Source of the DNA: a virus | Length of the DNA: 27,991 nucleotides | Reading direction: 5' to 3' (one strand) | UHGV virus genome: UHGV-0114978 | Shown here: positions 5,914 through 24,602 of the stretch, one piece after another | How positions within the stretch are numbered: position 1 is the first letter of the stretch | Layout: the number at the start of each line of letters is the position of its first letter | Notes under the pieces: model-generated | What the model was told of the DNA's origin: nothing | Database searches by the model: none | Seen by the model: only the letters and a program-made list of their open reading frames with translations | Made by a program: the position numbers and the translations under genes

Positions 5914-5935
5914 ATTACCTGAAAAACCACATATG
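5914..5935. promoter_or_regulatory. conserved 22-bp element ATTACC-N5-AACCACATATG, copy A (upstream of tailspike)
   Basis: Same element with identical internal spacing recurs at 24083..24104 upstream of the portal operon; each lies 30-75 bp upstream of a minus-strand late gene start. Confidence 0.4.
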
Positions 5936-5964: not shown

Positions 5965-5979
5965 TTACCTTTCAGGTAA
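5965..5979. promoter_or_regulatory. 15-bp palindrome TTACCTTTCAGGTAA (candidate operator), copy 1
   Basis: Perfect inverted repeat TTACC/GGTAA around a 5-bp centre; identical copy at 24146..24160, variants at 6346..6360 and 7390..7404. Confidence 0.45.
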
Positions 5980-6016
5980 TTTGCAAAACGTGCTGGATAG
6001 CAAACAAATTATTTGA

Positions 6017-6036
6017 TACTGTATAAATATACAGTT
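6017..6036. promoter_or_regulatory. LexA binding site (SOS box) TACTGTATAAATATACAGTT
   Basis: CTGT-N8-ACAG with AT-rich spacer, near-perfect match to the E. coli SOS box consensus TACTGTATATATATACAGTA; ends 19 nt upstream of ATG 6056 and overlaps a TATAAAT -10-like hexamer. Confidence 0.75.
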
Positions 6037-6055
6037 ATTGCATGGAGAAGATAAG

Positions 6056-6313
6056 ATGCAGCAGTATCACTATCCACTGGAAGACGGATTTACCGAAAGG
6101 ATTCACACGCCGGGAGGCGTCAGGTCACTGGTGGAAGGATCGCACTTGATGAAATTACTCCGGGATCTCGATAAGGATGGATTTAATGTCGATGGCCCAC
6201 TTGCCGAACTGACTGCACTGATTAACTACGTCACCAGCTCACAGATGTCTATGCGGGATCTGCAAACACATCTCGACTATTGTGCCGAACAATTACGAAA
6301 ACAAACCAGATAA
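6056..6313 (+). CDS. SOS-box-associated small protein (85 aa) homologous to the C-terminal domain of the downstream antirepressor
   Basis: Track ORF 6038..6313 begins at TTG; ATG 6056 has SD GGAGAAG 5 nt upstream. Residues about 34-80 align with Ant residues about 175-225 (by eye about 45 percent identity, for example LM.LL..L..DG..V.G..AELT...Y......RD.QTH..Y). Confidence 0.6.
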   Translation: MQQYHYPLEDGFTERIHTPGGVRSLVEGSHLMKLLRDLDKDGFNVDGPLAELTALINYVTSSQMSMRDLQTHLDYCAEQLRKQTR

Positions 6314-6345
6314 GGTTTGTAATTACCAAGTGGAGTGCTTATATT

Positions 6346-6360
6346 TACCTTTGCGGTAAA
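6346..6360. promoter_or_regulatory. palindrome TTACCTTTGCGGTAA (operator variant), copy 2
   Basis: One-base variant of the 15-bp palindrome, nested inside a longer inverted repeat GGAGTGC(6332-6338)/GCACTCC(6369-6375). Confidence 0.4.
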
Positions 6361-6451
6361 TTTACACCGCACTCCTCTTGTGCCATAGTAATCGGGCACT
6401 GGCAAAATCCAGTGCCGGGATTGGCGTCCCGGATTACTAAAAGGCGCATTC

Positions 6452-6471
6452 ACCGCGCAAGCGGTTTTTTT
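6452..6471 (+). terminator. intrinsic terminator ACCGC-GCAA-GCGGT followed by TTTTTTT
   Basis: GC stem with GNRA-type loop and a 7-T run, read from the sequence; sits 140 nt downstream of the 85-aa ORF and 160 nt upstream of ant. Confidence 0.65.
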
Positions 6472-6628
6472 ATGCGTATAGCACGGCCACATTCGTATTA
6501 TGGTGGGCTGTGTGGGGGCACCGAAAGGTGCGCCGGGTCCTTTTAGCCGGTTACGCCAACCCTGCACAGTTCACCACCAACCGATTGGCGTCGGTAGTGG
6601 TGATTAACCAGACTAAAAGGTAACCACT

Positions 6629-7324
6629 ATGACAGCTACAAAAAGCACGTCCATTTTTTCTTTCGAATCTCAAGCCGATATACGGGTAATCGTCATTAAT
6701 GGTGAGCCATGGTTTATCGCTTCAGATGTTTGTCGGGCTATAGGCATAGCAAACCATCGAGATGCTGTTCGAAAACTTGATGATGATGAGAAGGGCGTCG
6801 CTTCAACCGACACCCCTGGCGGTGAGCAAGAATCGATCATTATCTCCGAGTCAGGCCTCTACACACTGATCCTCCGCTGCCGCGATGCGGTGACACCAGG
6901 CACTATCCCATACCGCTTTCGTAAATGGGTTACAGGTGAGGTTCTTCCTCAGATCCGCCGCACCGGAAGTTACATTAAAAACTCGCTCCCGCAGGAAGAA
7001 CGCATAAAGATGGTTGCCGACCAGGTAGCCAACGCCACGGCGTCAGCAGTAATGCAGGCGATGAAGATAGAGAACAAAACCTACAGTGCCCCGCTGAAGC
7101 CCGGCTACCGCAGCCTGATTCATTCGCCGTCGGGTGTTCTCGGCCTGACGGAGAACTCACTGCTGATGAATCTGCTGAACCAGTTACAGGACGACGGGCA
7201 CGACGTATCGGGCGCGGCGGCGGAACTGACCACCATGTTCTGCTACATCGTCGGTGTGAGCAAATGCCTGCGTGATATCCAGACGCACGCGGAATACATC
7301 AACGACAAGGCAGGGTTCTTCTGA
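6629..7324 (+). CDS. antirepressor with N-terminal BRO-N (Bro/KilA-N type) domain
   Basis: N-terminal region FSFESQADIRVIVINGEPWFIASDVCRAIGIANHRDAVRKLDDDEK...SGLYTLILRC...FRKWVTGEVLPQIRRTGSY matches the BRO-N/phage antirepressor signature; 231 aa. Confidence 0.85.
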   Translation: MTATKSTSIFSFESQADIRVIVINGEPWFIASDVCRAIGIANHRDAVRKLDDDEKGVASTDTPGGEQESIIISESGLYTLILRCRDAVTPGTIPYRFRKWVTGEVLPQIRRTGSYIKNSLPQEERIKMVADQVANATASAVMQAMKIENKTYSAPLKPGYRSLIHSPSGVLGLTENSLLMNLLNQLQDDGHDVSGAAAELTTMFCYIVGVSKCLRDIQTHAEYINDKAGFF

Positions 7325-7389
7325 CGAGCGGCGGCACAGGGATGTGCCTTTAAATAATTCTGTACAGATTGCAGGTGAATAGCGTACTA

Positions 7390-7404
7390 TTACCCCAAAG
7401 GTAA
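7390..7404. promoter_or_regulatory. palindrome TTACCCCAAAGGTAA (operator variant), copy 3
   Basis: Same TTACC-N5-GGTAA arms; lies about 27 bp upstream of ATG 7431. Confidence 0.4.
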
Positions 7405-7430
7405 ACCGAGAGTTTACATGAGGGGGAAAC

Positions 7431-7619
7431 ATGGAAATCAACATCATTACATTGCTGAAGGCCATTATTGGCGGAGCGGGCTTAGGCTTTGCCCTACCAG
7501 GCGGATTATCTTTCCTGCTTCCTGCTTTTACTGTTACAGCTGGGATAGCCTATGCATTTGCTGTAGCTGGTGCTGTTGCACTCCCTGCTATCTATGCCGC
7601 AAAGAAGTTAGCCAACTAA
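7431..7619 (+). CDS. small Gly/Ala-rich hydrophobic membrane protein (62 aa)
   Basis: Strong RBS (GAGGGGGAAAC before ATG); two predicted TM helices rich in G/A (IIGGAGLGFALPGG, AGIAYAFAVAGAVALPAIY); stop is directly followed by the next ATG. Confidence 0.5.
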   Translation: MEINIITLLKAIIGGAGLGFALPGGLSFLLPAFTVTAGIAYAFAVAGAVALPAIYAAKKLAN

Positions 7620-7620
7620 A

Positions 7621-7953
7621 ATGCCTGATTTATCTTGGCTTGCGCCCAGAGATGCACAGCAATTGACAAGGTTTTATTTCATACTGTGCATTGCTTATCT
7701 TGCTGTTCATCTGATATGGGATGCCGTTTGCAAAGATACGCCTCCTTTTTCTTTGGATAAGTTGCAATACAAGATGAATGAGGTTTATTCATCATCTACT
7801 TTTGCAACCAGCGCATTCTTCATTGTTATTCTGTTCGATATGAAGAATCCACTGAGAACTTCAGATGCTTTCATATTCCCATTAATTATTGCTGCTCTAA
7901 CTGGCTTTATGATCTCATTATCAGCAATAGTGCCAAAGAAAGTAAATAACTGA
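7621..7953 (+). CDS. hypothetical integral membrane protein (110 aa, about 3 TM segments)
   Basis: Translationally coupled to the 62-aa ORF (TAA-A-ATG); hydrophobic segments FYFILCIAYLAVHLIW, FATSAFFIVILF, FIFPLIIAALTGFMISLSAIV; followed by a terminator. Confidence 0.55.
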   Translation: MPDLSWLAPRDAQQLTRFYFILCIAYLAVHLIWDAVCKDTPPFSLDKLQYKMNEVYSSSTFATSAFFIVILFDMKNPLRTSDAFIFPLIIAALTGFMISLSAIVPKKVNN

Positions 7954-7956
7954 ATA

Positions 7957-7979
7957 AGCCCGCTCTGCGGGCTTTTTTG
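7957..7979 (+). terminator. intrinsic terminator AGCCCGC-TCTG-CGGGCT followed by TTTTTT
   Basis: Perfect stem plus T-run immediately after the 110-aa ORF stop. Confidence 0.7.
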
Positions 7980-8050
7980 TGGACGAAACAAAAGTCAGTG
8001 CTACACTCATTAACGCCACATTGAGGTGGCTTATAGATGGAAATTTAACA

Positions 8051-8212
8051 ATGAAAAAAGCATTTGCTGCACTGTTCGTTTTGTTGTCTCTGGTAGCTTC
8101 AACTCAGGCCTTTGCCGGTCGTTGTCAGCACGACAGCGATACTGCTGCTGACGGCTCCCGCTGCGGTGGGCGTTCTGCGGATTCCCGTCCGGGCGGCGGT
8201 GGCATTCGTTAA
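8051..8212 (+). CDS. candidate small secreted peptide (53-aa precursor with signal peptide MKKAFAALFVLLSLVASTQAFA)
   Basis: Internal Met of track ORF 7979..8212 starts a classic Sec signal peptide (MKK n-region, hydrophobic core, AFA cleavage motif); predicted mature peptide about 31 aa, Gly/Arg-rich with 2 Cys. Confidence 0.4.
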   Translation: MKKAFAALFVLLSLVASTQAFAGRCQHDSDTAADGSRCGGRSADSRPGGGGIR

Positions 8213-8240
8213 AAACAAGGCCGCGAAAGCGGCCTGTTTG
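8211..8240. terminator. bidirectional terminator-like hairpin GGCCGC-GAAA-GCGGCC flanked by A-run and T-run
   Basis: Sits between convergent genes (plus-strand peptide ORF, minus-strand 273-aa ORF); reads as stem plus TTGTTTTT on the minus strand. Confidence 0.6.
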
Positions 8241-8241
8241 A

Positions 8242-9063: not shown

Positions 9064-9084
9064 TATGCCAAAATTTTTTTCATC

Positions 9085-12000
9085 CTATTTCATCTGCTCT
9101 TCAACTTTATTTAGTAATGGTGATATCGCCCACAGATTCTGAAAAGGTAGCATTTTACGGACAGCGTGGGTTTGCTGGCTGTCAAATTCTCCGTTAAGTA
9201 CACCATTTGCAACCGTCGCGGCATCACCGCCAAGATCAAAGGTAGGACCAAGTAAAGCACCAATAGCATTACGACTCTGAAACCTTGATACCGGAGGCGC
9301 ACCAAACATCGCGCCAAGACCAAACCTACCGCCGCTTATGTTCTCAACGGTATTCAGCGGCTCAGAGAGCCAGCCAAGCATTCCGCCCCGGTCGATCCCC
9401 TCTTTCACAAGGTTATTCCAGCTGTAGTCGATATCGCGACCGCTTAACTTCTGTTTCATCATATAGACCATTGAGCCAAGCGCAATCGTGCCAAGCGCAC
9501 CAAGATAGAATGCAGCATCGCCCTGCTGGATACCAGATACCAGCACCCTGTTATGCTGTGCGAAGATAAACGTTTTGAACTGCGTGATCATCTTCCAGCC
9601 TTCTTTACTAAAAAACAGCGGTGTATCACCTACGCCAGGCGTTACAATCACTGAGTCTACATCTTTCAGCACTGCAGACTGGAAAATCTCTCTAGCGAAA
9701 CGGTCATCCCACAGATGACTATGCCCGGTTAACAGCCCGTCCATATCCTCTCCGTGCTTCCCGAATTGCTCCCCGATTCGGCGCAGAACATCTTCATTGA
9801 TGCCGACCTGTGCCATCTTCCGCATTTCACTTTTGGAGAGCGTGCCACCAGCAGAAACTTGGCGAGCCGCGTCAAGTATCCTCGACTGCACTATCATCCC
9901 AGACCATGATTTAAGTGCGCTGTTCCACTGATTCATCAGCGTCCAGTTACCGAATTTCTGCGTCATCCAGTTCAGACCTCGCTCAGCGGCGCTTCTCCGG
10001 CTATAGGGGTCAGTAAGATCCGCTATAGCCTTTGTACGCGTAGACAGGACATAATCAAGCCCAACTGCCATTTCTCGCAAATCCCTGGTTGCAATTTTTA
10101 CTGAGTCCATATTTTTAAGCATGCTTACCATTGGTCCGAGAGATTTTCTCAGGCCATGCTGCATCATCGGTCGCATCAGATCAGTTGCAGCGGAGACAGT
10201 CATTCCACCAAGCAAACGGAGGAAGTTAATATTCCTAGCAACTCGCCCGGCACGAACAAAGAAACTGCGTGGATCTTGAGGTGCACCGTAAGTACCAAGC
10301 AGTCGATCACGCATAGCCGTAATATCCCTAATATCAGCCTCCCGTTGCTTCTCAAGAACTGCACGTCGTTTAGGTGTTTTAGCCTCTTTTATTAGCCGGG
10401 TATATTCCTCACTAACCTGACGGATTTGCTCCCCCATATCTTTACGGCCAAACTGCGCAGTCAGCTCAATTTCTGGTGCCACCTGCCGGAGATAACTTTC
10501 CATGATGTAGTTAACATCTGATTCAAGAAAATCTTCTATACGCTCATCAGGAATAAGCAGCGTTCTGCTTTTAGTGAAACCAGCCCGACCAACGAGTCTC
10601 TCTGGGATAATATCGGCTGGTACAAGCCCGGAAGGTGCGCCTATTATTTTATTCACGATCTCGTCAGCAGCGTCCTCTGCTTCCTCTCGGGATAGAGGCT
10701 CCATCTGCTTCAGTGCTCGCTCGCGGCTTGCATTCAGCCTTGTGGTTGAATTTGCCCGTTTTTGCAGTCGGCGAAGCTCAGAACGATATTTCCGTGGATT
10801 ATCCAGCAACTCCATATGGCGCTGATAGACAGGAAGCTCACTCTTTGCCTGCGCTATATCATCAAGGAGTGTTTTAAGGTCAGAGCTTTCTTTCATCATT
10901 CTTGCCTGAAGTTTTTCTGATGAAGTCTCGGCCAACTCTTTTTCTATTCTTGTAAGACGCGCCTGTGTGTCAGTCTCCTGAGATATAAGCTTATTTCGTT
11001 TATCCAGTTCTTCCATGAGTAGAATTTTTTTACCAGACCATTTCTCCGCTTCAGCGATTTCACTAGCGAGAGCATCAGCGCGCGGTGCTGATTCCTCTGC
11101 AGTTTTTAGCAATGAATTTATCTTTTCAATTCGCTGACCTGCTTTGTCAGCACCTTTGGCACTAATCCCTTGTATCCAGTTGGCAATTCGCCCTCTGAAT
11201 TCAGTGCGGTCGGAAAGTATCTTATCGAACTTATAAATGCGGGGAAGATAACTCTTCGCCGTCACGACATCGATATCCTCAGGAAGGATCCCCAATTCCT
11301 GCATACGGGCTTTTGTGGTCTCAAAAATGGGGCGGATTCTGGCGGCTGCTTGTGAAACCTCAGGAATATCACTCTGATCACCACGGCGCATAGCCATGCC
11401 AACAGCTTCATTGAAATCAATAAAGTTCATCCTCTTCACGCCGCGGGCGCTGACAGATTTGCTGTACTGCTGGTAAGCATCACGAGTAGCTTCCATCTGC
11501 TTATAAAGCATGGCGTCGTATTGCTTAATCTTAGTCTCGACTGCCGTAAACGTAGCCAACCCCTCATCATTTTTGGCGAAGAAATAGTTATTTTCGGCAA
11601 GCTGCTGGTTAATCTGACGGGAGACAAGAGATGGTGATTGCGCCAAGCGGCCAGCAGGAGTGACACTCAACGTTTTGTTAGCAAGTCCAAGTCCAGCGAG
11701 CTGTTCCTGATCGAGTGTGGTATTGAAAACCTGAGCTGCACCAATGCTTTGAGGAGAATCCATACCTCGCAAATGATTACCTACTGAGTTAACCACTGCC
11801 TCGCGCGCGCTAGGTCCAGCAAGTAGCTGTGCACCAGCACCAAGGATCCCACCAACGAGAGCATCAACAACAACGTTCGATACGCTCTCCATCGGTGAGC
11901 GAGCTTCCTGAGTGGCCTGTAATGCGGCTTCTGATACTCCCCCACCAGCAGCATTCGCCAGGGCAAAACGCCCTGCCGTCTCAGCAATACTTCCTCCACG

Positions 12001-12474
12001 CGCTACCGCCCCTACAGGGATGAACATTGCAGCCACATTAACCGGGTCTATCATTCCCATTGCTAAGCTTGAAATAGTACCAGCACCACCCATTTCAGAT
12101 AGATATTCTCTATCTGTTCTTTGCTTATCGATTCGATGTTTAATTGCCATTGTTTCTTCATGCGAACCGGAGTTGATAAACGAATCTGCAAAATCTTCAT
12201 AGCCTTTAATATCTGCTGCATCGTTATCAAATGGGTTATATCCTTCAACCCTGTCAAACTGACTGAAAGGAGCACTGGCAATAAAGCTACCCAGCGTGTT
12301 ATCTATACGAAATGCTGCTTGTCTAGACCTTTGAACGCGTTGCTCACTGGTAAATGGGTTCACAGCAGAAAGCAAAGAAGGTGTTTCCATATAGAAATTA
12401 CTGTCATCAGGTGCTGCTATTTGCTGAATATCCTCGCCAAGCAACTCTTTAGGATCCTGTTCATATATCGGCAT
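9085..12474 (-). CDS. internal virion (core/ejection) protein, gp16-like by size and position (1129 aa)
   Basis: Last large gene of the core operon, start coupled to the upstream stop; Gly/Ala-rich putative membrane-interacting region (MGMIDPVNVAAMFIPVGAVARGG...) and long central coiled-coil; order matches T7 gp14-gp15-gp16. Confidence 0.65.
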   Translation of the reverse strand: MPIYEQDPKELLGEDIQQIAAPDDSNFYMETPSLLSAVNPFTSEQRVQRSRQAAFRIDNTLGSFIASAPFSQFDRVEGYNPFDNDAADIKGYEDFADSFINSGSHEETMAIKHRIDKQRTDREYLSEMGGAGTISSLAMGMIDPVNVAAMFIPVGAVARGGSIAETAGRFALANAAGGGVSEAALQATQEARSPMESVSNVVVDALVGGILGAGAQLLAGPSAREAVVNSVGNHLRGMDSPQSIGAAQVFNTTLDQEQLAGLGLANKTLSVTPAGRLAQSPSLVSRQINQQLAENNYFFAKNDEGLATFTAVETKIKQYDAMLYKQMEATRDAYQQYSKSVSARGVKRMNFIDFNEAVGMAMRRGDQSDIPEVSQAAARIRPIFETTKARMQELGILPEDIDVVTAKSYLPRIYKFDKILSDRTEFRGRIANWIQGISAKGADKAGQRIEKINSLLKTAEESAPRADALASEIAEAEKWSGKKILLMEELDKRNKLISQETDTQARLTRIEKELAETSSEKLQARMMKESSDLKTLLDDIAQAKSELPVYQRHMELLDNPRKYRSELRRLQKRANSTTRLNASRERALKQMEPLSREEAEDAADEIVNKIIGAPSGLVPADIIPERLVGRAGFTKSRTLLIPDERIEDFLESDVNYIMESYLRQVAPEIELTAQFGRKDMGEQIRQVSEEYTRLIKEAKTPKRRAVLEKQREADIRDITAMRDRLLGTYGAPQDPRSFFVRAGRVARNINFLRLLGGMTVSAATDLMRPMMQHGLRKSLGPMVSMLKNMDSVKIATRDLREMAVGLDYVLSTRTKAIADLTDPYSRRSAAERGLNWMTQKFGNWTLMNQWNSALKSWSGMIVQSRILDAARQVSAGGTLSKSEMRKMAQVGINEDVLRRIGEQFGKHGEDMDGLLTGHSHLWDDRFAREIFQSAVLKDVDSVIVTPGVGDTPLFFSKEGWKMITQFKTFIFAQHNRVLVSGIQQGDAAFYLGALGTIALGSMVYMMKQKLSGRDIDYSWNNLVKEGIDRGGMLGWLSEPLNTVENISGGRFGLGAMFGAPPVSRFQSRNAIGALLGPTFDLGGDAATVANGVLNGEFDSQQTHAVRKMLPFQNLWAISPLLNKVEEQMK

Positions 12475-15221
12475 TATTTGCCCCCTGCGTATATATTGCT
12501 CGGAAGGTAATTGGCTGAACCATAACCGAATGGTTTGGTCAGATCTGGAGGAGTATATCCATCTTTATTGCTGAACTGCGGCAGCGGATTGCCTTCTCTC
12601 CGCACTCTAGCCTCATCAACACGCTGTTGCTGGAACTGAATGGTTTGCCTGTACATTGGAGATGTCAGCTGATCCGGCTTGAAACGAACAGGGAGACCAT
12701 TTTCTCCAATATAATTTCTCGGTTCTATCGCTCCGTTTGCGTCAGGCTGTAAAACCATAACAGCATAACTCCTATCCCTTGCCGTAAGGCCATCAGAAAC
12801 AAGTATTAAGTCCGTATCACTGCGAGGACCGCCAAAGGATTTTGATTTAAGCTCGCGTTTTTCCTGCTCCCACTGCCCCTGTATCCAGTTACCAGCACCA
12901 TTATTTACTCCGTACAATGCCTCAGGTGCATACTTCATAACCTCTGCTTTGCCATTAACTGTAGAAACTCCCCAGGTGGTTCTGATCATGGCATTGGTCA
13001 TTTTCTCAGCCTGTTCTGCATCGCCACCTGTCTGTACAAAGTTAGCATCGTAAATTGTCTGGTAATCTCGCTGATAGGCCGCATTTGATTTTCCTGGATC
13101 GGTAATATCCGGAGACCACGAACCAAAGGAAGTCAGACTGCTGGCGTTATTTTGTGCAGCAGTTGCCCTCGCCGCGACATATTTTTTGTCTCGCATGGCA
13201 GTGGAAAGCATCTGTTTCATTCGGTCATCCTGTTGGAACACCTGGCTGTAAGCCATATCAACAGCCTTATCCTCCGGCACGCCAGCGCGGGAATAATCGT
13301 AAACCTTGCCGTAAAATGCCATCGTACTTTTATCAAGTGTTGCCGCTGCCGCCGGATTATTATCGAATAACTGACCGTAGAATTTTGCCATCGGGACAAC
13401 CAGCGCAGGATCTCTTGATGTTGCTCCACTGTTAAGCATTGTTTTAACCTGAGTTGGTATCATGCCGCTTTTAGTTGTGACGGTGACCAGTGTATTGATG
13501 CTCTGCGGATCAGATATGGAAAACGAAGGCGCGATATCCTGCGCGAAATAACGGTCTACCGCTGCCTGATTGTTTTTGTCGTTAGGGTCCAGCGGGAAGT
13601 TATTTTGCATTGAAGACACGAACCTGTTTCTTCCCTGCTGAATCTCCCACTCCCTATCCATCTCTTTAAATTTGGCCTGCATTTTCTCCCAGCGTTGCTG
13701 GTTAGCTGCAAATCCAGGAGCATTTGGATCCTGTGGACGTAAACGTTCAAGAATGTCTTGTCGTCCTTCTGGAGTGAGGTCTTTAGCGGCACCAATGACA
13801 CCTCCATATTGTATCTGCGCCTGCATATCCTTCCACTTCATAGCGCCAATGCGCGGACCATTGGCCCGGATAAAATCGTCCTCAGAAGGTAACTTCTCAG
13901 GTTTCAATCCTTCATCAAGGGCTGAATATGCATCTTTAACTACGGTGCTAAGCTGGTCCGCATACTGCTGGCGGTACTGATTTCTCAGCTCATTAGCCTG
14001 CCTCAATGCCTGTATTTGCATTTGAGGGCTCATAGCGTCAAATGCCGCATTGCCCGTATAACGCTTAGGTGAATCAAGGTTAGTTAGACCAAGGGCTGCC
14101 GAGATACCAGTTTCAAGCTGTTCGGTGCTATAAGGCATACTGCCATTTTCGTGTTTAATAATCCCAGCACATAAAGCAGCTAGTGTCTTTGGGTTAGAGA
14201 TATCAAGCTGATCATTCTCCCCAACACCAAGCTCACTACACAATGCCCTAATATAAGCATCAGTATTATTACCATCACTAGCCGGAGCATAGCGATTAAC
14301 AATCTCGCTAACGGTGTCATAGCCTTGACGCTGGTAAGACAACATATTTTTACCCAACGCGCGGATTCCATGCTCAGGGGTAGCAAACGTTGCAAAACGT
14401 CCATCACTACCTATCTGACCTTCCCACGGGTTAGATTTGCTCGCTTCAATATTACCAGGGTTATTATTACGTAAACCACGAGCATCCAATGAATTACCAT
14501 GTGATATTGCACGACTCACACCATCAAGATCCCCTGGCTCTCCATTAACCTGAAGAAACTCGTTGTATTTTTGAGCGATATTTCCTATCCATGCTTGCTG
14601 CCCCATTTGTTCCTTGAGCTGAGTTTTCTGCTGAACACGCCACTCATCAGGAAGCCCATGCGCATCAGCGTATTGATCAATAGATTCAAATCGCTGCTTG
14701 GCTAAATCGACAAATGCTTGGTTATCGCTATATAGCCCCGCAGACTGAGTGACAGCCAATGCATTTCCTGACAAATACGTTTGATCTTGGAATTGCTGAA
14801 ACTGCCCAACTTCATATCGACGTGCCTGATTGTAATAAGACTGCATAGACTGCTGGAGTTGAAAGGATAATTTATTCCTTTCCTCACTTTCAGGAATTGA
14901 GCCTAATAATGCCTGAGCCCTTTCCTGCATATTTTTCATAACAGCGTCACTCTGACCAAGAGCGTTTTTACCCTGTTTAGAAATCAGCCCATTTTCAGGG
15001 TTGTTAATCTGGTCATCTGCAAATTGGTTAAATTGCAGTAACGCCTCCTGGGCCATAGCAACATTCGCTTTCTGCCTAGCTTCACCATATGCCACCGCAT
15101 ACTGATCTGCGACATTCGCCAGCACCTGACCTGCTTGAGGAACATCGAAGGTCTGAAAACCACCGGTTTGCACACCACGACTTTGCACCTGGCGTCCGGA
15201 TGTAGTAGGAACAACAGGCAT
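12474..15221 (-). CDS. internal virion protein, gp15-like by position (915 aa), with a conserved NNPGN-containing block that may be a cell-wall hydrolase domain
   Basis: Translationally coupled on both sides; block RNNNPGNIEASKSNPWEGQIGSDGRFATFATPEHGIRALGKN looks like a conserved enzymatic or binding domain I cannot name with certainty. Confidence 0.65.
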   Translation of the reverse strand: MPVVPTTSGRQVQSRGVQTGGFQTFDVPQAGQVLANVADQYAVAYGEARQKANVAMAQEALLQFNQFADDQINNPENGLISKQGKNALGQSDAVMKNMQERAQALLGSIPESEERNKLSFQLQQSMQSYYNQARRYEVGQFQQFQDQTYLSGNALAVTQSAGLYSDNQAFVDLAKQRFESIDQYADAHGLPDEWRVQQKTQLKEQMGQQAWIGNIAQKYNEFLQVNGEPGDLDGVSRAISHGNSLDARGLRNNNPGNIEASKSNPWEGQIGSDGRFATFATPEHGIRALGKNMLSYQRQGYDTVSEIVNRYAPASDGNNTDAYIRALCSELGVGENDQLDISNPKTLAALCAGIIKHENGSMPYSTEQLETGISAALGLTNLDSPKRYTGNAAFDAMSPQMQIQALRQANELRNQYRQQYADQLSTVVKDAYSALDEGLKPEKLPSEDDFIRANGPRIGAMKWKDMQAQIQYGGVIGAAKDLTPEGRQDILERLRPQDPNAPGFAANQQRWEKMQAKFKEMDREWEIQQGRNRFVSSMQNNFPLDPNDKNNQAAVDRYFAQDIAPSFSISDPQSINTLVTVTTKSGMIPTQVKTMLNSGATSRDPALVVPMAKFYGQLFDNNPAAAATLDKSTMAFYGKVYDYSRAGVPEDKAVDMAYSQVFQQDDRMKQMLSTAMRDKKYVAARATAAQNNASSLTSFGSWSPDITDPGKSNAAYQRDYQTIYDANFVQTGGDAEQAEKMTNAMIRTTWGVSTVNGKAEVMKYAPEALYGVNNGAGNWIQGQWEQEKRELKSKSFGGPRSDTDLILVSDGLTARDRSYAVMVLQPDANGAIEPRNYIGENGLPVRFKPDQLTSPMYRQTIQFQQQRVDEARVRREGNPLPQFSNKDGYTPPDLTKPFGYGSANYLPSNIYAGGK

Positions 15222-16260: not shown

Positions 16261-18731
16261 CAGAATCCCCCAACAGTAAGGCGAGGAATAACGGCAAGAA
16301 CAGACAGCGGCAACGGATCAAGCTGACGGATTTTTACACGTCCGTTTTTGCCCCAGTTACTGTCCAGTTTCACTTCTACTTTTCCGGTAGCATCATCAAC
16401 AGGATCATCGTAGAACTCGAATTCACGCTGTGGATATTCGTACCATTTACCGCCGGGCGTAGTCGCCCAGATGCCGCGACTGGCATTCACAACCAGAGTA
16501 ACGGAGGGGATCACCTGTTTTTTGTCCAGCAGCGTTTCCTGTCCGTTAATGTTGATATCCAGTGTTTCGAATTCAGCAGTTATTGGCAGGCCGATGTGCA
16601 CAACAGCCCCCGGTGATTCCAGCGTGACGGCACCTCCGGAAACCACTTTCTGTGGTTCCACGTTCGCATCAGAGAGAATGTTTACGGTCTGGCCTTCAAG
16701 ATGAGACAGGCCTCCAAATGTCCGGCGTGCCATCTGCCAGTTCGTGGTGGCCACATTCCTGAGGGATGGCGGGACGTTCCTGTTAGCACGAACCACTACA
16801 GCGGTGTTGCTGGTTACAGAAATAATGTCGCAACGTAATTCTTTTGACACTTCATCGCCAGTATCAGGATCAGTTCCGGTATAAGGGAACTGTAGTTGCG
16901 CACCGACATCACTACTGGTGAAGTACGCACCGCCAGAAATACTGATTGTATATTCCGCGCGGTAATCCCATTCGCCAGAACCACCAGTGATGGTCATCGT
17001 TCTGTCAGACGTATTTCTTCCATCATAGCTAAGGCCAGAATCAACAAAGAAAGCATCTTCATCGCTGGTAAATAAACGGCTGGACAGTCGCTCGATGTAT
17101 CTCACTGTTTGCCCGTTAACGGTTCGGTTAACGACGAAATACACCGCATCTTCATTTCCTTCGCTGATACTGCATGTGCTTTCATATTTTCCGGTACTGG
17201 ATTGTGGTGCCCATGCAAAAACCTGCTGATCACGCAAATAGGTCATCACCAGTAATTTACCGTCATCACGAATGCAGAAGGCGCTGGAGTAAGGGACAAT
17301 AGAGAAGCACCAGTCAACAATGCTGTGCTTCTGAAAAAGATGATTGGCAAGGATGGTCAGGTCGTTCCCCTGATAGCCGTCAACATCGAATGAGTAGGCC
17401 AGATCACGGACAACACTGCCTTTCTCCTGGACGAACAGAGCAATATTCGCCACGGCAATTGGTGGGACATTGCTCGAGCCATTTGATCCCTGAGAGCTGA
17501 ATGCAAATGATGATGGGGTTAACACTTTGTTCTGGTCGCCGGTGATGACGTACTCACCTCCGGAAGTCAGTGCCACCAGCGAACCGACATCAATCAGGTG
17601 GCGGATCTCATTAACCTGACGCCCGGCATAGGTGTAGATAATTCTGTCGTCATCCTGCGTAGGATTGCTTTTGCCAAAATCCTTATAATCCCCGGTACGG
17701 CTGGCCCAGATAGTCTGAGGGAACGCAGTCGATGCGGCGAAGTAAAGACGTTGTTGATAATAAACAACAGTGCCAGGATAACCATTAACACTGTTCCAGG
17801 CATATTTAGCCCATTTATAGCTGGCATTATCCTCGCCAACTACCTGCGAAGGGATATAGGAAATCACCTCGGCAGTTGCAGTAGTTCCATTTGCAGCAGT
17901 GATACGGGCAATGCCAAAACCACTGTGCAGATATTCCCACTCAATGCCAGTATCATCATCACCGGATCCGCCCCAGCCATCCCATGATGTGCCTTCTGTA
18001 TGCGAAGGGCGCAAAGTACCTGTTTTGCCTGCTGTAACGGCGCGATAGTAGTTACTGTCTGCACGGCGAATATCGCCAATCGACGTACTCTTACTGGTTT
18101 CCCATACCGGCACTGAATCCACTGCAGGCTGTTCCAGATAGAACAATTTGCCTACCTGCTCCGCGCCAAAAATAGAGGCGCTTGCCGTTAACGTAATTGT
18201 CCCGGTGCTGGCGCTGGCATAAACCGTCACTGACTCGTCAATATTGATATCTTCAAATGGCCCGTTCTTCGTTACCACATCAACCAGTTGCCAGTTGTCA
18301 TGAGCATATCGGCGCAACTCTTTCGGCGGGTATGCCGGGTGAACCAGCGTAAGCACGTCGGCGCTTTGCGTGAATTTAATTCGGAACAGATCGGCTTCAG
18401 TATATGGCGTGGCAATTTCATAAATAACATTGCTGCTGTTCAGCACCAACGCACCATCTTTGATAACGCGCATGTACTGGTGTCCGAACTCCAGAGCATA
18501 AGTCTGAACCGTCGAGAATTGGAACGGGATCAGGCGGCATTTCCGATTTGGGTATTTGGCGGCACCGACAAAACGCGTACCAGGTCGATTCTCAACGCCG
18601 CCATACTGCCGCACGATAAAGTTATCGCACTTGCGCAATGCTACCTGGTACTTCGCCATGTCAATACGCCCGTACAACGACGGTCCAATCTCACCACCGG
18701 CAAAGCTGGGCTGGATCCAACTGATAGCCAT
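16260..18731 (-). CDS. tail tubular protein B-like (nozzle), 823 aa
   Basis: Position after the adaptor-like gene and before the core proteins, as for T7 gp12; N-terminus MAISWIQPSFAGGEIGPSL loosely resembles the gp12 N-terminus (M..ISQSIKNLKGGISQQP); size is comparable. Confidence 0.6.
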   Translation of the reverse strand: MAISWIQPSFAGGEIGPSLYGRIDMAKYQVALRKCDNFIVRQYGGVENRPGTRFVGAAKYPNRKCRLIPFQFSTVQTYALEFGHQYMRVIKDGALVLNSSNVIYEIATPYTEADLFRIKFTQSADVLTLVHPAYPPKELRRYAHDNWQLVDVVTKNGPFEDINIDESVTVYASASTGTITLTASASIFGAEQVGKLFYLEQPAVDSVPVWETSKSTSIGDIRRADSNYYRAVTAGKTGTLRPSHTEGTSWDGWGGSGDDDTGIEWEYLHSGFGIARITAANGTTATAEVISYIPSQVVGEDNASYKWAKYAWNSVNGYPGTVVYYQQRLYFAASTAFPQTIWASRTGDYKDFGKSNPTQDDDRIIYTYAGRQVNEIRHLIDVGSLVALTSGGEYVITGDQNKVLTPSSFAFSSQGSNGSSNVPPIAVANIALFVQEKGSVVRDLAYSFDVDGYQGNDLTILANHLFQKHSIVDWCFSIVPYSSAFCIRDDGKLLVMTYLRDQQVFAWAPQSSTGKYESTCSISEGNEDAVYFVVNRTVNGQTVRYIERLSSRLFTSDEDAFFVDSGLSYDGRNTSDRTMTITGGSGEWDYRAEYTISISGGAYFTSSDVGAQLQFPYTGTDPDTGDEVSKELRCDIISVTSNTAVVVRANRNVPPSLRNVATTNWQMARRTFGGLSHLEGQTVNILSDANVEPQKVVSGGAVTLESPGAVVHIGLPITAEFETLDININGQETLLDKKQVIPSVTLVVNASRGIWATTPGGKWYEYPQREFEFYDDPVDDATGKVEVKLDSNWGKNGRVKIRQLDPLPLSVLAVIPRLTVGGF

Positions 18732-19665: not shown

Positions 19666-19709
19666 TCCTGCAATAAAGGGGCCGAAGCCCCTTGTCTGAT
19701 CCGCGAGGC

Positions 19710-20111
19710 TTACACGCCCAGTTCTTTACGCTTACCCGCAGTGAATTCGCCAGCCGTTAGTGGGCCAGTTGCGACGGAGTAGTTAACACGCAGATATCGC
19801 TGAACACCGGCAGGCACCTTTGCAGAAACAACTCGTTTACCTGCTGTCAGGGCGGTCTTTGCCAGTGCACCACTATCATAAATAGTGGTCCATGAGCTGT
19901 TATTCTCACTCGTCTGCAACTGGATGTTTACAGTTGCCTCACCACTTGCCGTGGCGGCTTCGTTAACCAGCACCCAAAACTCAAGCGGGTAACCCACGCC
20001 GATATCACGACGTTTTCCGTCAATTGGACCGAGATCGATTACGTCAGTAGAAGCCGCGGTATTCGTAACCGCCTGAGCTTCGGAGAACATCAACAGTTTG
20101 TCGGTGATCAT
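19710..20111 (-). CDS. small structural protein (133 aa) immediately downstream of the major capsid gene
   Basis: Beta-rich composition (alternating T/V/S); location typical for a decoration or cement protein. Confidence 0.45.
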   Translation of the reverse strand: MITDKLLMFSEAQAVTNTAASTDVIDLGPIDGKRRDIGVGYPLEFWVLVNEAATASGEATVNIQLQTSENNSSWTTIYDSGALAKTALTAGKRVVSAKVPAGVQRYLRVNYSVATGPLTAGEFTAGKRKELGV

Positions 20112-20162
20112 CTTCTTTCTCCATTAGTGGGTCTGTTACGACCCACAGGTTAATAACAGGCG

Positions 20163-21155: not shown

Positions 21156-21163
21156 TTCCTCTC

Positions 21164-21865
21164 TTATTTGCCATAGAGCACTTCGGCCGCACTACGCTGG
21201 CCTTCATTACCACCGGTGACCATGCCATCTTCAGACATCGCCTTTCCGATTTTCACGAACGTTTTGACCAGATCAGGGTGATTACCCAGCCCGGTGGTGT
21301 TCAGATATTCTTTGAGTTCAGGTGTCCCGAACTGGTCAAGCGCACGCTGTGCGGCGCTAAGGTTAGAAATCAACTTGTCGCCACCGATTTCTTTGTCAGC
21401 TTTTACATCCGCAGCCCACTGCTCGGTTGTTTTCTGCCAGGCTTCTGCCTGGCGCTGCTGAACACCTGCCAGAATCTTCGGATAAGCATCAACCAGCTTT
21501 TGCGCTTGCTCGTTGGTCAGGTTAAGTTCTCGCGCCACCGGCTCGAATTCCTTCAACGCTTCTGTATCCAGCTCTACGCCTTCGGCAGCCTGAAACTCGT
21601 ACTTCTCAGGCGCACCCTCTGGTTTATCGCCGTCCTTTTTTTCATCCTGCTTATCGTTTTCAGGCTTTTTGTCATCAGCAGGTTTATCGCCATCAGCAAC
21701 AGGTTGTGGCTTATCACCTTCCTGTTGTGATGGATCACCAACTGGAGCAGGGTTATCACCTGCAGGCGCTGACGGTTCTGACGCAGCCGGAGCTGCTCCA
21801 CCATCGACTGGTTGCTCATTGCAAAGACGGCGATACAGCAAACGCTCAAATAAATTCATGATCAC
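21164..21865 (-). CDS. scaffolding protein (acidic, helical, low-complexity; about 233 aa, true start may lie a few codons in)
   Basis: Pro/Ala/Asp/Lys-rich N-terminal half (PAASEPSAPAGDNPAPVGD...KPADDKKPENDKQDEKKDGDKPE), helical C-terminal half; located between portal and capsid. Confidence 0.7.
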   Translation of the reverse strand: MIMNLFERLLYRRLCNEQPVDGGAAPAASEPSAPAGDNPAPVGDPSQQEGDKPQPVADGDKPADDKKPENDKQDEKKDGDKPEGAPEKYEFQAAEGVELDTEALKEFEPVARELNLTNEQAQKLVDAYPKILAGVQQRQAEAWQKTTEQWAADVKADKEIGGDKLISNLSAAQRALDQFGTPELKEYLNTTGLGNHPDLVKTFVKIGKAMSEDGMVTGGNEGQRSAAEVLYGK

Positions 21866-22158
21866 TCCTGTTCACTGGCCTCTTTGGCCATCTTCAAATA
21901 CTGTTCAGGGCAATGCGCCATAACGCGCTGAAACAGTTCCAGCGCCAGATTGCGTTGCCCCTCATTAAATGCCATTGCCATAGCGTCCATCGGTGAGATG
22001 GCGGAAAACACACGGCCTTTCTCCAGCACCGACCAGACAACGCGACGCCCCTGTTCACTGCTCATGACAAAGCGAATGTCATCAATTTCACGCTGCGCCA
22101 TGTCACGTTGCTTACGGGCGTTTTCTTCTTTCAGTTGATCGTCTTCGTAATCTGTCAT
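21862..22158 (-). CDS. hypothetical head-assembly-associated protein (98 aa)
   Basis: Coupled to portal (upstream) and scaffold (downstream) by 4-nt overlaps; charged, helical. Confidence 0.45.
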   Translation of the reverse strand: MTDYEDDQLKEENARKQRDMAQREIDDIRFVMSSEQGRRVVWSVLEKGRVFSAISPMDAMAMAFNEGQRNLALELFQRVMAHCPEQYLKMAKEASEQE

Positions 22159-23834
22159 TGTGATTGCCCACCCTGACCACTAACTGCATTCGCCATAGCT
22201 GACAACACACTCGGATCCGAAGTTTTAGCTTCGCTTAGCGTCTTGGCCCCCTGTGCCGCCGCCATCCCCATCGCCATCATTTGTTGCTGCTGTTGTTGCT
22301 GTGCCCGTTGCTGGCGAGCCTGCTCAACCTGTTCCTGCGGAACAATGACGGTTGGAGACACTCCGGACATATCAGCGAATGCATCGATCGCCTGATCAAC
22401 GTTGAGTTTGTCGAGAGCTTCTGGTTTCGCTTGCGCAAGTTGACCAATGAAGTTAACCGTGGACGCCAGACTGGACAGGCCGATAGACTTCTGCGCCTGA
22501 GCCATGACGGAAATGTATTCGACCTTCAGGGGCATGCCTTCCATCGCGTCAGGCGGTGGCGGCAGCATGTTTTTACGCACCATCATCGAGAAAGCGCGGT
22601 CAATGAGAGGATTAAGACATTCGTCGTTCAGACGCTCCAGAACCGGCCCCAACATCAGAAGCTTTTCTTCTTTCATTTCGATCACCGCTTCAACAGGCAT
22701 TGAGCGGGTATTGATGTTCTGCAACATCATGAACAGATCGACGAAGTAGGCGCTGTTAATGATTTGACGAGTGTCCTGAATGTCTGCCACCAAATCTGCT
22801 GTACTGGGGTTAACCAGATAAGCAGGCCTGAAGCCATCCTGACCAGTAATCTGATCGATATACGTGATGTCGCCAGGAAGAAGGGAGGCACGCTGATTCT
22901 TGAGGGAAGTCGGAGCAACCATCGGCGGATTGGTGGCTTTATCAATCAACTGCGACTTGCGCTTCTGGAGACGCTGCAATGCCTTAACAGGTCCAAGCGC
23001 CAGCATACCCGGGCATGATGATCCATAAACATCTTCGCCATTAACTTCCCAGCGCGGAGCCATAATTGGAAACTCATCGAATCCGGACTCACGCAACAAC
23101 TTGTCGTTATCGCCACCAACCTCGTAATAAACCGATTTGAATGGCTTGTTCTTGCTATCCAGCTTCGATGTATCGCGGTCAATGTTCGGGTAAACCGAAT
23201 GCATCACTTCGATCCACTTCTCGTAGGTGCCGCTTTCCCACATGCTTTTTACGGATTCGCTGACGTTATTTAGCCCGAACTCCTGAACAAGCTGACGAAC
23301 AGTCATAGAGAACTTGCGAAAACAGGTGTCAACACTGCCACGAGGTGAGTTAGCCAGGTAGTAACTGCCTATCGGGAATGGCATTGTGCGAATGATGTCC
23401 TCGTCATCCTCCAGCACTGCCATTGCACCAGTGCTGTATGTGCCGAGGCTTCCGTATAACTGCGGCAGCGACTGATAGAGATTCGACTTATTGAACATAT
23501 CGTTCATGCGGTTCTGCACCGCCTCAAGCCACAACTTAACAGGGCCATAATCCATCATTTCAGGATCTGGCGTAGCCAGGCGAAACCACGGACGCGCGGG
23601 GCTTGTGATGCCTGACATCATGCCGCTGGCGAGAGTGCGCGCCGCCATAGTCCCGGTCGAATCAATAATACGTGTATTGCGTCGATCGTTACGGTTGACC
23701 TCAGAAGTCAGAAAGCGGGAACCACGCGGGTTGATGTAATCACTCAACTCGCGCCAGTGCGGCTCGAACGACTGACGCTCGCTTTCAAGTTGTGCGAACT
23801 GTTTGTTCAATCGCTCTTTAGTTGTTTCCGCCAT
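22155..23834 (-). CDS. portal protein (T7 gp8-type head-to-tail connector), 559 aa
   Basis: Size and C-terminal Gln/Met/Ala-rich tail (QQRAQQQQQQQMMAMGMAAAQGAKTL...) resemble T7 gp8 as I recall it; GGAG RBS 9 nt before ATG; follows terL. Confidence 0.88.
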   Translation of the reverse strand: MAETTKERLNKQFAQLESERQSFEPHWRELSDYINPRGSRFLTSEVNRNDRRNTRIIDSTGTMAARTLASGMMSGITSPARPWFRLATPDPEMMDYGPVKLWLEAVQNRMNDMFNKSNLYQSLPQLYGSLGTYSTGAMAVLEDDEDIIRTMPFPIGSYYLANSPRGSVDTCFRKFSMTVRQLVQEFGLNNVSESVKSMWESGTYEKWIEVMHSVYPNIDRDTSKLDSKNKPFKSVYYEVGGDNDKLLRESGFDEFPIMAPRWEVNGEDVYGSSCPGMLALGPVKALQRLQKRKSQLIDKATNPPMVAPTSLKNQRASLLPGDITYIDQITGQDGFRPAYLVNPSTADLVADIQDTRQIINSAYFVDLFMMLQNINTRSMPVEAVIEMKEEKLLMLGPVLERLNDECLNPLIDRAFSMMVRKNMLPPPPDAMEGMPLKVEYISVMAQAQKSIGLSSLASTVNFIGQLAQAKPEALDKLNVDQAIDAFADMSGVSPTVIVPQEQVEQARQQRAQQQQQQQMMAMGMAAAQGAKTLSEAKTSDPSVLSAMANAVSGQGGQSQ

Positions 23835-23848
23835 TTCAATGACTCCGG

Positions 23849-24055
23849 TTACTGACCAAGTAGCGTTTTACCGCTGGTATTAGCGGTTGATGTGTCGCCC
23901 TGAGAACCGGTAAGCAGCGTAGAACTACGACCAGCAGCAGCGCGACGGCGACGTGTTTCTTCGTCGCGGGCATCAACAACGGCGGCATCCTGCTCCTGTG
24001 GTGCTGCCTGAACTTCTGGTGTTGCAGGCACTGATGGTGAGCTACCCATGCACAT
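23849..24055 (-). CDS. candidate small disordered protein (68 aa) upstream of portal
   Basis: Stop TAA lies 14 nt upstream of the portal ATG; preceded by the same 12-nt stretch CGGAGTCATTGA that precedes the portal start. Low-complexity A/T/S/Q-rich sequence, so the coding call is tentative. Confidence 0.35.
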   Translation of the reverse strand: MCMGSSPSVPATPEVQAAPQEQDAAVVDARDEETRRRRAAAGRSSTLLTGSQGDTSTANTSGKTLLGQ

Positions 24056-24082
24056 ATCAATGACTCCGTACGCAATTAAATT

Positions 24083-24104
24083 ATTACCAATTTAACCACA
24101 TATG
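24083..24104. promoter_or_regulatory. conserved 22-bp element ATTACC-N5-AACCACATATG, copy B (upstream of the 68-aa/portal operon)
   Basis: Identical arms and spacing to copy A at 5914..5935. Confidence 0.4.
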
Positions 24105-24145
24105 ATTTATTTATCGTAGATAGTTGACATTTAACGCACAAATTA

Positions 24146-24160
24146 TTACCTTTCAGGTAA
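24146..24160. promoter_or_regulatory. 15-bp palindrome TTACCTTTCAGGTAA (candidate operator), copy 4
   Basis: Identical to copy 1; preceded by a perfect TTGACA hexamer at 24124..24129. Confidence 0.45.
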
Positions 24161-24559: not shown

Positions 24560-24602
24560 GAATCACGCCTAAGGACCGTGATGCCAGAAGTTCCAGGTGC
24601 TT

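Follow-up and report, generated by a model that had tools for sequence, protein, structure and literature searches.

Palindromes in a Uetakevirus-like metagenome contig as probable operators of the prophage maintenance repressor Rep

Palindromes and Their Surroundings in the Contig

The window is a complete metagenome contig of 27,991 bp, which is also the whole record. From 3400 to 27765 it shares 99.88% identity with a Uetakevirus (phiV10/epsilon15-like) prophage carried by E. coli SCZE5. Its left end is a P22-like/lambda-type int-xis-attP module, and the rep gene and lysis cassette are absent from the contig.

An exact scan of the window for TTACC-N5-GGTAA gave five matches (5965-5979, 6345-6359, 7390-7404, 24146-24160, and 26962-26976), compared to 0.03 expected, and none of 100 dinucleotide-preserving shuffles of the window reached that count. 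Allowing one mismatch yielded six sites (0.60 expected), the sixth being 26944-26958 (TAACCACCATGGTAA); no palindrome was found in the lambdoid left end (1-3400). The palindromes at 5965 and 24146 are the same 15-mer and have similar neighbours. All six are intergenic, given a terS start at the ATG at 26944, and since non-coding DNA makes up 7.3% of 3400-27765, the probability that all six would fall there by chance is about 1.6e-7. An earlier note on this sequence had described the palindromes as lying outside the long coding regions, and this holds for the full set of six. Its four listed sites are real, with the second starting at 6345 rather than 6346, but the count was incomplete, as the terS-proximal pair (26962 and 26944) had been overlooked. 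Intrinsic terminators were considered for the palindromes and rejected (0 of 6 in terminator scans, -3.3 to -5.4 kcal/mol, no T-run).

Features between the tailspike gene and the accessory operon are listed below, with operators and half-operators given without strand.

3731-5860, minus strand: tailspike gene
5915..5929: putative auxiliary half-operator TTACCTGAAAAACCA, adjoining the conserved AACCACATATG (5925-5935)
5965..5979: predicted Rep operator TTACCTTTCAGGTAA, exact match, extended form ATTACC..GGTAAT
6017..6036, plus strand: LexA (SOS) box TACTGTATAAATATACAGTT, the sole window match to the 20-bp SOS consensus
6056..6313, plus strand: ant, a small SPC32H-type antirepressor of 85 aa (phmmer match to PDB 5d50_E)
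6317-6345, plus strand: promoter-like TTGTAA-17-TATATT (promoter scan, consensus match)
6345..6359: predicted Rep operator TTACCTTTGCGGTAA, exact match
6361-6389, plus strand: promoter-like TTTACA-17-CATAGT (promoter scan, consensus match)
6396-6471, plus strand: isrK-like RNA (Rfam RF01394, 77.9 bits, above gathering score)
6496-6581, plus strand: C4 antisense RNA (Rfam RF01695, 77.7 bits, above gathering score)
6629-7324, plus strand: Bro-N antirepressor (PHROG phrog_130 "anti-repressor Ant," E 2.2e-62)
7390..7404: predicted Rep operator TTACCCCAAAGGTAA, exact match
7431-7619, 7621-7953, and 7979-8212: accessory operon

The palindrome at 5965-5979 lies between the divergent tailspike gene and ant, and its epsilon15 ortholog, 19895-19911, is annotated as repressor-binding. 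In an alignment of this region from six phages its half-sites are conserved (one base differs in phiV10) and its spacer is variable. On the tailspike side, the half-operator is 50 bp away from the full one, an offset kept in 7 of 7 genomes, and stands out as a conserved island in the same alignment. On the other side, the LexA box has two mismatches to the SOS consensus (0.00 such matches expected in the window), and the six phages share its CTGT..ACAG core and most of its remaining positions. Conservation and spacing indicate that it probably overlaps the ant promoter (-35 TGGATA at 5994-5999, -10 TACTGT at 6017-6022). The ant product matches 5d50_E, "Anti-repressor protein," over residues 2-84 (phmmer E 1.4e-46). 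The palindrome at 5965 is upstream of this likely promoter and does not overlap it, which counts against promoter occlusion at that position.

Downstream of ant, the palindrome at 6345-6359 is located between tandem plus-strand promoter-like sites, and the Rfam isrK match begins at 6396, 7 nt past the CATAGT hexamer. An equivalent site was found in phiV10, SCZE5, EC.W1-9, and Tyrion. The isrK-like RNA, the C4 RNA, and the Bro-N antirepressor follow one another in that order as a second antirepression module (6396..7324, plus strand). The palindrome at 7390-7404 directly follows a -10-like TACTAT (7385-7390) with a candidate -35 TGTACA at 7361-7366, a predicted promoter, and lies 27 bp upstream of the accessory operon; its counterparts are at 35938 in SCZE5 and, in the corresponding accessory region of EC.W1-9, at 26831. 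Since epsilon15 lacks these two modules, it has no equivalent of the palindromes at 6345 and 7390.

Two further control regions are found toward the right end of the contig.

23849-24055, minus strand: gp3-like gene of the head operon, followed by portal and further genes
24084..24098: putative auxiliary half-operator TTACCAATTTAACCA, adjoining AACCACATATG (24094-24104)
24146..24160: predicted Rep operator TTACCTTTCAGGTAA, exact match
24483-24559, plus strand: tRNA-Arg(UCU)
26348-26944, minus strand: terS (phrog_51, terminase small subunit; 198 aa, as in epsilon15)
26944..26958: second predicted operator, one mismatch, minus strand reads TTACCATGGTGGTTA (1-mismatch scan)
26962..26976: predicted Rep operator, exact match, minus strand reads ATTACCACGACGGTAA
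27013-26996, minus strand: intrinsic terminator

In the divergent region between the head operon and tRNA-Arg(UCU), a -10-like TACCTT (24147-24152) is contained within the palindrome at 24146-24160, 17 bp after a perfect plus-strand -35 TTGACA (24124-24129). Every phage compared keeps the TTGACA, the 17-bp spacing, and the palindrome, although the spacer sequence has diverged, and the palindrome is orthologous to epsilon15 2931-2947, also annotated as repressor-binding. The half-operator 62 bp away has the same offset in 7 of 7 genomes and is part of a highly conserved head-operon leader of about 60 bp, a block that is near-invariant in the alignment.

The terminase/packaging operon starts downstream of the intrinsic terminator, where the palindrome at 26962-26976 immediately follows an extended -10, TGgTACTAT; TGnTACTAT is kept in phiV10, SCZE5, and SPC32H. 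This palindrome is orthologous to epsilon15 12-27, again annotated as repressor-binding. The second one, 18 bp away, overlaps the terS ribosome-binding site and adjoins the start codon, and the 18-bp pair was found at terS in all relatives compared. An alternative longer terS ORF with a TTG start would run through the terminator, and the start is here corrected, relative to the call of automatic pipelines, to the ATG at 26944 as in epsilon15. Taken over the window, a -10-like hexamer adjoins, overlaps, or lies inside four of the six palindromes (consensus matches, with predicted starts), which fits repression by promoter occlusion.

The Operator Set in Relatives and the Rep Repressor

The same palindrome occurs at matching places in all six complete Uetakevirus genomes, with 14 sites in phiV10, 15 in epsilon15, 18 in SPC32H, 15 in the SCZE5 prophage, 17 in EC.W1-9, and 15 in Tyrion (at most one mismatch). 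Each of the six has two to three copies between rep and a divergent cro-like gene and two to three just downstream of rep (two and two in the SCZE5 prophage). No sites were found in 8 kb of host flanks of the SCZE5 prophage, nor any exact motif match in P22-like control phages of the same hosts. The epsilon15 record (AY150271.2) labels seven sites "protein_bind: repressor," all seven of which coincide with motif matches and three of which, at terS, head, and ant/tailspike, are the orthologs described above; these features may themselves be predictions. A base table of 33 exact sites (window, phiV10, SPC32H, SCZE5) has invariant half-sites and a varying 5-bp spacer and flanks, a signature of base-specific protein recognition. 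Orthologous positions are kept among phages of E. coli, Salmonella, and Enterobacter, including places where the flanks have fully diverged, and all relatives compared share one operator specificity. The earlier note had proposed that the sites link the accessory island to the late and tRNA region; instead, they are members of a set of about 15 operators distributed over the whole genome, with one or two at almost all transcription units.

Comparison of these genomes makes it very probable that Rep, the prophage maintenance repressor of Uetakevirus (epsilon15 gp38, phiV10 gp40, SPC32H Rep), uses the palindromes as its operators. Rep is an HTH protein without self-cleavage: no Peptidase_S24 domain was recorded for its homologs, which have only faint HTH Pfam hits. 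The C-terminal domain of the Rep homologs matches the tetramerization domain of SPC32H Rep (5d4z), and phiV10 gp40 matches SPC32H Rep itself (5d50_A) with E 4e-42. The two Rep types are only 43% identical, but both have an unchanged NLVNRW in the N-terminal domain (residues 36-41), which matches the shared half-site. Rep is 99-100% identical in at least 80 viral contigs.

For SPC32H, structures of Rep and its LexA-controlled Ant have been solved (PDB 5D50); Rep is reported to bind palindromic sites as a tetramer, and Ant to disassemble and release it (PMC9638917). The Rep tetramerization fold has been associated with DNA looping (PMC9986798). In phage ZX5, holin transcription fell by 99.97% when a Rep identical to that of phiV10 (gp40) was overexpressed (PMC9782041). 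The symmetric binder put forward in the earlier note is supported by these comparisons, although SPC32H Rep is reported to be a tetramer and not the simple dimer it envisaged. The note's placement of the repressor gene outside the window also agrees with the relatives, where rep, off this contig, is flanked by operator clusters.

Proposed Mechanism and Other Readings of the Sites

We infer that these particular sites are bound by Rep and that repression works through promoter occlusion. In a lysogen, nearly every transcription unit would have Rep on one or two of its operators, blocking RNA polymerase, with each palindrome taking one pair of HTH domains. The units so controlled here would be the terminase operon, the head operon with the divergent tRNA-Arg promoter, the tailspike promoter, the isrK/C4/Bro-N antirepressor module, and the small accessory operon. 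Upon DNA damage, LexA would leave the SOS box at 6017-6036, Ant (6056-6313) would be made and strip Rep off the DNA, and all units would be derepressed together.

As a tetramer, Rep could span site pairs with spacings of 18, 48-50, or 62 bp, but 18 bp and 48-50 bp do not correspond to an integral number of helical turns, which counts against bridging. We offer only tentatively the broader proposal that one tetrameric Rep with a p53-like looping domain silences every prophage transcription unit via about 15 operators, that the half-operators (50 and 62 bp) are weak loop partners, and that the lytic program is a single-step derepression without a late activator. The units meant are early, replication, packaging, head, tailspike, lysis, integrase, tRNA, and the second antirepressor module. 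Under looping, Rep-mediated DNA loops would span late promoters (tailspike, head operon). The 62-bp offset of the head half-operator matches that of 62-bp pairs of full sites near rep.

It is unlikely, but the most credible of the alternatives, that another phage regulator binds the palindromes, either the Cro-like product of the gene divergent from rep or a late activator (PerC-like/AlpA-like, from the early-left operon), the sites then being a lytic regulon. The late operons at terS, head, and tailspike lack a good -35 though sites lie upstream, as is typical of activator-dependent promoters, and the palindromes at 5965 and 6345 are centered at about -57 and -44 relative to the probable starts of ant and isrK, where activators can bind as well. 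In lambda-type switches Cro and CI use common operators, which makes co-use by a Cro-like protein plausible. Yet the densest clusters flank rep itself, as expected of the operators of a self-regulated repressor, the epsilon15 curators name the repressor as the protein bound, four sites have a repressing position over -10/+1, and the lysis genes, which have such a site upstream, are silenced by Rep overexpression.

Binding by a host transcription factor, or an origin of the sites by chance or duplication without function, is very improbable. The identical 15-mers at 5965 and 24146, with their similar neighbours, could suggest duplication, but the expected number of exact sites (0.03), their absence from the SCZE5 host flanks and, as exact matches, from P22-like phages of the same hosts, and the retention of orthologous positions across phages of three host genera despite diverged flanks all argue otherwise; we know of no E. 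coli factor with a TTACC-N5-GGTAA consensus. Least likely of all is that the palindromes act as RNA or DNA hairpins, whether as terminators, RNase III/processing sites, or attenuators. Each can form a stem of 5-7 bp, and RNase III sites are predicted in the epsilon15 record for some of these intergenic regions. However, the folds are weak (energies as above), A/U-rich, and without a U-tract, terminator scans detected none of them, and the sites lie in either transcriptional orientation and ahead of likely starts. The stem bases, moreover, never change across phages, whereas an element acting through structure only would show compensatory changes.

Comparison With Known Systems

The set of probable Rep operators most resembles the SPC32H Rep-Ant switch and the epsilon15 sites, with the same 15-17 bp palindrome at the orthologous terS, head, and ant/tailspike places. 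As in SPC32H, there is a small LexA-controlled Ant (LexA box upstream at 6017-6036, E 1.4e-46 to 5D50 chain E), and the Rep homolog of the 99.9%-identical SCZE5 prophage shares the N-terminal NLVNRW. In contrast to epsilon15 and SPC32H, the phiV10-type lineage has two extra predicted operators, at the isrK/C4/Bro-N promoter and before the accessory operon. The contig also has neither rep nor a lysis cassette, and a lambda-type int-xis-attP module forms its left end. With such a left end, and with rep off the contig, the immunity region of the source phage might be of another type. The contig could also be a genuine recombinant whose early and integration module is lambdoid, which would leave the operators orphaned or cross-regulated.

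Like C1 of phage P1, Rep is proposed here to be one repressor with many dispersed operators that silences most transcription units directly, and the predicted operator between the predicted promoters of the C4-RNA/antirepressor module would recall Op51 before the P1 immI operon (c4 RNA, icd, ant). P1 C1 operators are asymmetric 17-mers with the consensus ATTGCTCTAATAAATTT, which had no match in the window with up to three mismatches, and Rep is unrelated to C1. Unlike in P1 immI, no icd-like ORF lies between C4 and ant (a 47 nt gap), and an isrK-like RNA precedes C4. The palindrome sets of two to three between repressor and cro-like genes in the relatives, the palindromes at their early-left promoter, and binding by HTH domains are reminiscent of CI-Cro in lambda and P22 (OR1-3, OL1-3). 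Rep differs from lambda/P22 CI in having no Peptidase_S24 self-cleavage domain, being inactivated by an antirepressor instead, and operators also occur at late, lysis, integrase, and tRNA units, where lambda uses antitermination and not CI.

The Rep-Ant system is known in close relatives, where it has been annotated and its structures studied, and the contig is a further case of it, not a new kind of system. The analysis assigns a probable function to six intergenic elements and ties together the contig's control regions: the SOS-controlled Ant, the C4 RNA-gated second antirepressor module, the late operons, and the phage tRNA. On this reading, the phiV10-type prophages of E. coli, which are very common, share the operator code of the Salmonella phages epsilon15 and SPC32H.

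Copies of the palindrome in the window and in related phages

The 27,991-bp window contains five exact copies of the 15-bp palindrome TTACC-N5-GGTAA (starting at 5965, 6345, 7390, 24146 and 26962), compared with 0.03 expected from dinucleotide-preserving shuffles. A sixth copy, at 26944 and 18 bp from the one at 26962, appears once one mismatch is allowed; the scan found none in the left 3.4 kb. An earlier note had listed four sites and proposed a comparison with shuffled sequence, which bears out the enrichment. Those sites are real, with the second starting at 6345 rather than 6346, and the pair before the terminase genes had been overlooked. The observation of repeated palindromes is confirmed and now extends beyond that list. 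Their placement between genes also holds for all six, provided that terS starts at ATG 26944. Because only 7.3% of the stretch 3400–27765 is non-coding, the chance that all six would land there is about 1.6e-7.

The epsilon15-like ATG at 26944 is likely the true terS start. From it the product is 198 aa, the same as in epsilon15; automatic pipelines call a longer, TTG-started ORF that crosses an intrinsic terminator (27013–26996). Automatic annotation of relatives (window 26944–27022; L004, another sequence, 16310–16984) also uses an upstream TTG, which puts the terminator and both operators inside the terS "gene".

Sites matching the palindrome in other Uetakevirus genomes, with one mismatch allowed. 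Expected values were computed for phiV10 and epsilon15.
phiV10: 14 sites (0.65 expected)
epsilon15: 15 sites (0.61 expected)
SPC32H: 18 sites
SCZE5 prophage: 15 sites, and zero in 8 kb of host flank
EC.W1-9: 17 sites
Enterobacter phage Tyrion: 15 sites

Exact copies are absent from the P22-like control phages. The positional classes of sites are identical in every Uetakevirus genome compared, and phiV10-type phages have extra sites at the isrK/C4/Bro-N promoter and ahead of the accessory operon. Apart from occasional single-base variants, half-sites are constant across phages, in contrast to the variable 5-bp spacer and flanks; where E. coli-type and Salmonella-type phages wholly diverge, conservation starts at the operator.

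Positional classes of sites.
Pair with 18 bp spacing, ahead of terS
Single site, head/tRNA divergent region
Single site, ant/tailspike divergent region
One site ahead of the lysis genes
One site ahead of int
Two or three sites directly downstream of rep, including a 62-bp-spaced pair
Two or three sites between rep and the divergent cro-like gene
One site past the cro terminator
62-bp pair ahead of the next early-right unit

Make-up of the contig

The window is a complete metagenome contig (ENA ERZ1755950, NODE_369_length_27991_cov_4.97) of low coverage, about 5x. Positions 3400–27765 form one unbroken alignment with a prophage beside guaA in E. coli SCZE5 (99.88% identity), and match phiV10, EC.W1-9 and other Uetakevirus members at 95–98%. 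The left 3.4 kb is of another kind, seen in P22-like phages: lambdoid ea genes, xis, an integrase of the lambda type and an intact lambda-like attP. No lysis cassette was found on the contig.

1709–1927, xis
1905–2975, lambda-type integrase
about 2976–3200, intact lambda-like attP
minus strand, structural genes (terS, terL, portal, capsid, internal proteins, tailspike)

The P22-like/lambdoid module joins the Uetakevirus virion module at about 3400, within a small ORF (3352–3654) that protein look-ups found to be common in P22-like prophages. Since the contig is a 5x-coverage metagenome assembly, the junction may mark a genuine recombinant or a chimera assembled across a repeat. The exact right-end pattern of the window matches more than 120 unrelated lambdoid contigs; a search with the junction pattern returned as its sole match a P22-like phage sharing window 3045–5270, and protein look-ups found neither of two NinX start choices. 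In GCA_034538515.1 JAXRHH010000202.1 (8910–10008), P22-like injection, antirepressor and truncated tailspike genes abut DUF551-NinX and a Uetakevirus terS, an arrangement that suggests recurrent exchange or recurrent mis-assembly between the two phage types.

The tailspike gene (3731–5860; 10811–13035 in the viral contig L127) is mosaic. Its 5' end aligns to the phiV10 tail-fibre gene, and the N-terminal ~166–236 residues match tailspike/fibre families in PHROGs. Window 3045–5270, from attP-side DNA through the small ORF downstream of the gene into its 3' part, is 98.5% identical to L127, where the operator motif does not occur.

Operator geometry and adjoining genes

At four of the six sites the operator touches a -10-like hexamer. 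Promoter positions given here are read from consensus matches; a simple -35/-10 scan backs only the two promoters around 6345, and the others were judged by eye from conserved hexamers. The idea of a generic -35/-10 promoter at every site was dropped on the strength of that scan.

Promoter elements at or near operators.
6340–6345, TATATT; last base is the first base of the 6345 operator
from two bases past the 6345 operator, TTTACA-17-CATAGT with upstream TG; predicted start 6396
7385–7390, TACTAT; last base is the first base of the 7390 operator
24124–24129, plus strand, perfect TTGACA, followed after 17 bp by TACCTT within the 24146 operator
minus strand, just past the terminator, extended -10 TGgTACTAT ending on the 26962 operator
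5994–5999, TGGATA, -35 of a candidate ant promoter, with -10 TACTGT within an SOS box (consensus reading)

The second operator of the terS pair (26944) covers the ribosome-binding site of that gene. Repression by promoter occlusion would fit these positions. The operator at 5965, placed 14 bp upstream of the likely -35 of ant, probably acts on the leftward tailspike promoter, not on the LexA-controlled ant.

The promoter-like TTGACA-N17-TACCTT points toward tRNA-Arg(UCU), which is divergent from the head operon; every phage in the comparison keeps this arrangement, despite a diverging spacer sequence. Between promoter and tRNA lies an unannotated leader of ~320 nt (24161–24482; whole stretch 24124–24559); an Rfam search of 24060–24900 matched only the tRNA.

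Around strong sites, partners with at least one perfect half-site peak 62 bp away (31 cases vs. a mean of 1.2 per offset), with further peaks at 18, 17, 48 and 50 bp. The window has two conserved half-operators:

5915–5929 (with adjoining element to 5935), TTACC-N5-AACCA, 50 bp from a full operator
24084–24098 (with adjoining element to 24104), TTACC-N5-AACCA, 62 bp from a full operator

Both are on the late-gene side of the full operators, each is fused to a conserved AACCACATATG, and their exact offsets are kept in all seven Uetakevirus genomes. The composite element could serve as a weak site for Rep or belong to a late promoter or leader; an attractive arrangement would have tetrameric Rep bridging the strong and weak sites across late promoters. 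In epsilon15 the 11-mer CATATGTGGTT recurs past the operator of the lysis region, at a place that the record marks as a predicted RNase III site.

In 6396–7324, an isrK-like RNA and a C4 antisense RNA lie directly upstream of a Bro-N antirepressor gene. The predicted start at 6396 coincides with the first base of the Rfam isrK match, and no icd-like ORF was found between C4 and ant. Judged from sequence, this is a second, P1 immI-like antirepression module beside the LexA-controlled one. Three small accessory genes, preceded by a putative Rep operator, separate the Bro-N gene from the tail genes:

7431–8212, plus strand, genes of 62 aa (hydrophobic, membrane-like), 110 aa, and 77 aa (matches a membrane-associated PHROG)

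Rep as the predicted binding protein

The GenBank record of epsilon15 has seven features labelled "protein_bind, repressor, lysogeny"; all seven coincide with motif matches, and three are orthologous to window sites. These labels, together with the same sites at matching places in relatives, support the reading of the palindromes as operators of a DNA-binding protein, as the earlier note had it. The window palindromes are predicted Rep operators, of a kind already known and annotated. The rep gene itself was not found on the contig. The repressor of epsilon15 is 43% identical to phiV10 gp40, with NLVNRW invariant in the N-terminal domain of both repressor types, which fits the half-site they have in common. 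phiV10 gp40 matches the solved SPC32H repressor structure (5d50_A, E 4e-42); when the Rep alignment was used to look for co-variation at related loci, every Rep recovered was 99–100% identical to gp40. Palindromic DNA sites are bound by a tetramer of SPC32H Rep, which an Ant tetramer releases (PMC9638917), and the Rep tetramerisation domain has a fold linked to DNA looping (PMC9986798). Overexpression of a Rep identical to phiV10 gp40 lowered holin transcription by 99.97% (PMC9782041).

The window ORF 6056–6313 (85 aa) matches the SPC32H antirepressor (5D50 chain E, 5d50_E, E 1.4e-46). Upstream of it, at 6017–6036, is TACTGTATAAATATACAGTT, a LexA box close to consensus; the window contains no other SOS-box match. 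Together (6017–6313) the box and the ORF form a putative SOS-induced antirepression switch.

It is possible that a different regulator, such as a Cro-like protein or a late activator, shares use of the sites, but their clustering around rep, their -10/+1 positions and the repressor assignment by the epsilon15 curators favour Rep. Palindromes could also work as hairpins, for example in terminators. This is unlikely and was dropped, as the stems fold weakly (-3.3 to -5.4 kcal/mol) and lack a T-run, terminator scans called none of them, and compensatory changes, which an element defined by structure alone would show, are never seen in the stem bases. An origin by chance or duplication, or as host-factor sites, is contradicted by motif enrichment, by the lack of copies in host flanks and of exact copies in P22-like phages, and by conservation over three host genera.

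Among known systems the Rep-Ant switch of SPC32H and epsilon15 is closest, and the window is a phiV10-type member of it. Its logic is P1-like, with one repressor serving many scattered operators and, by prediction here, a C4 antisense RNA and antirepressor behind a promoter under repressor control. The proteins, however, are unrelated to those of P1, and membership among P1 C1 operators was rejected, the C1 operator consensus having no match in the window with up to 3 mismatches. Unlike lambda-type switches, Rep is without a self-cleavage domain, and operators are present also at late, lysis, integrase and tRNA units. To this system the window brings small additions: two operator positions peculiar to the phiV10 lineage, half-operators at fixed distances, and a conserved promoter facing the tRNA.
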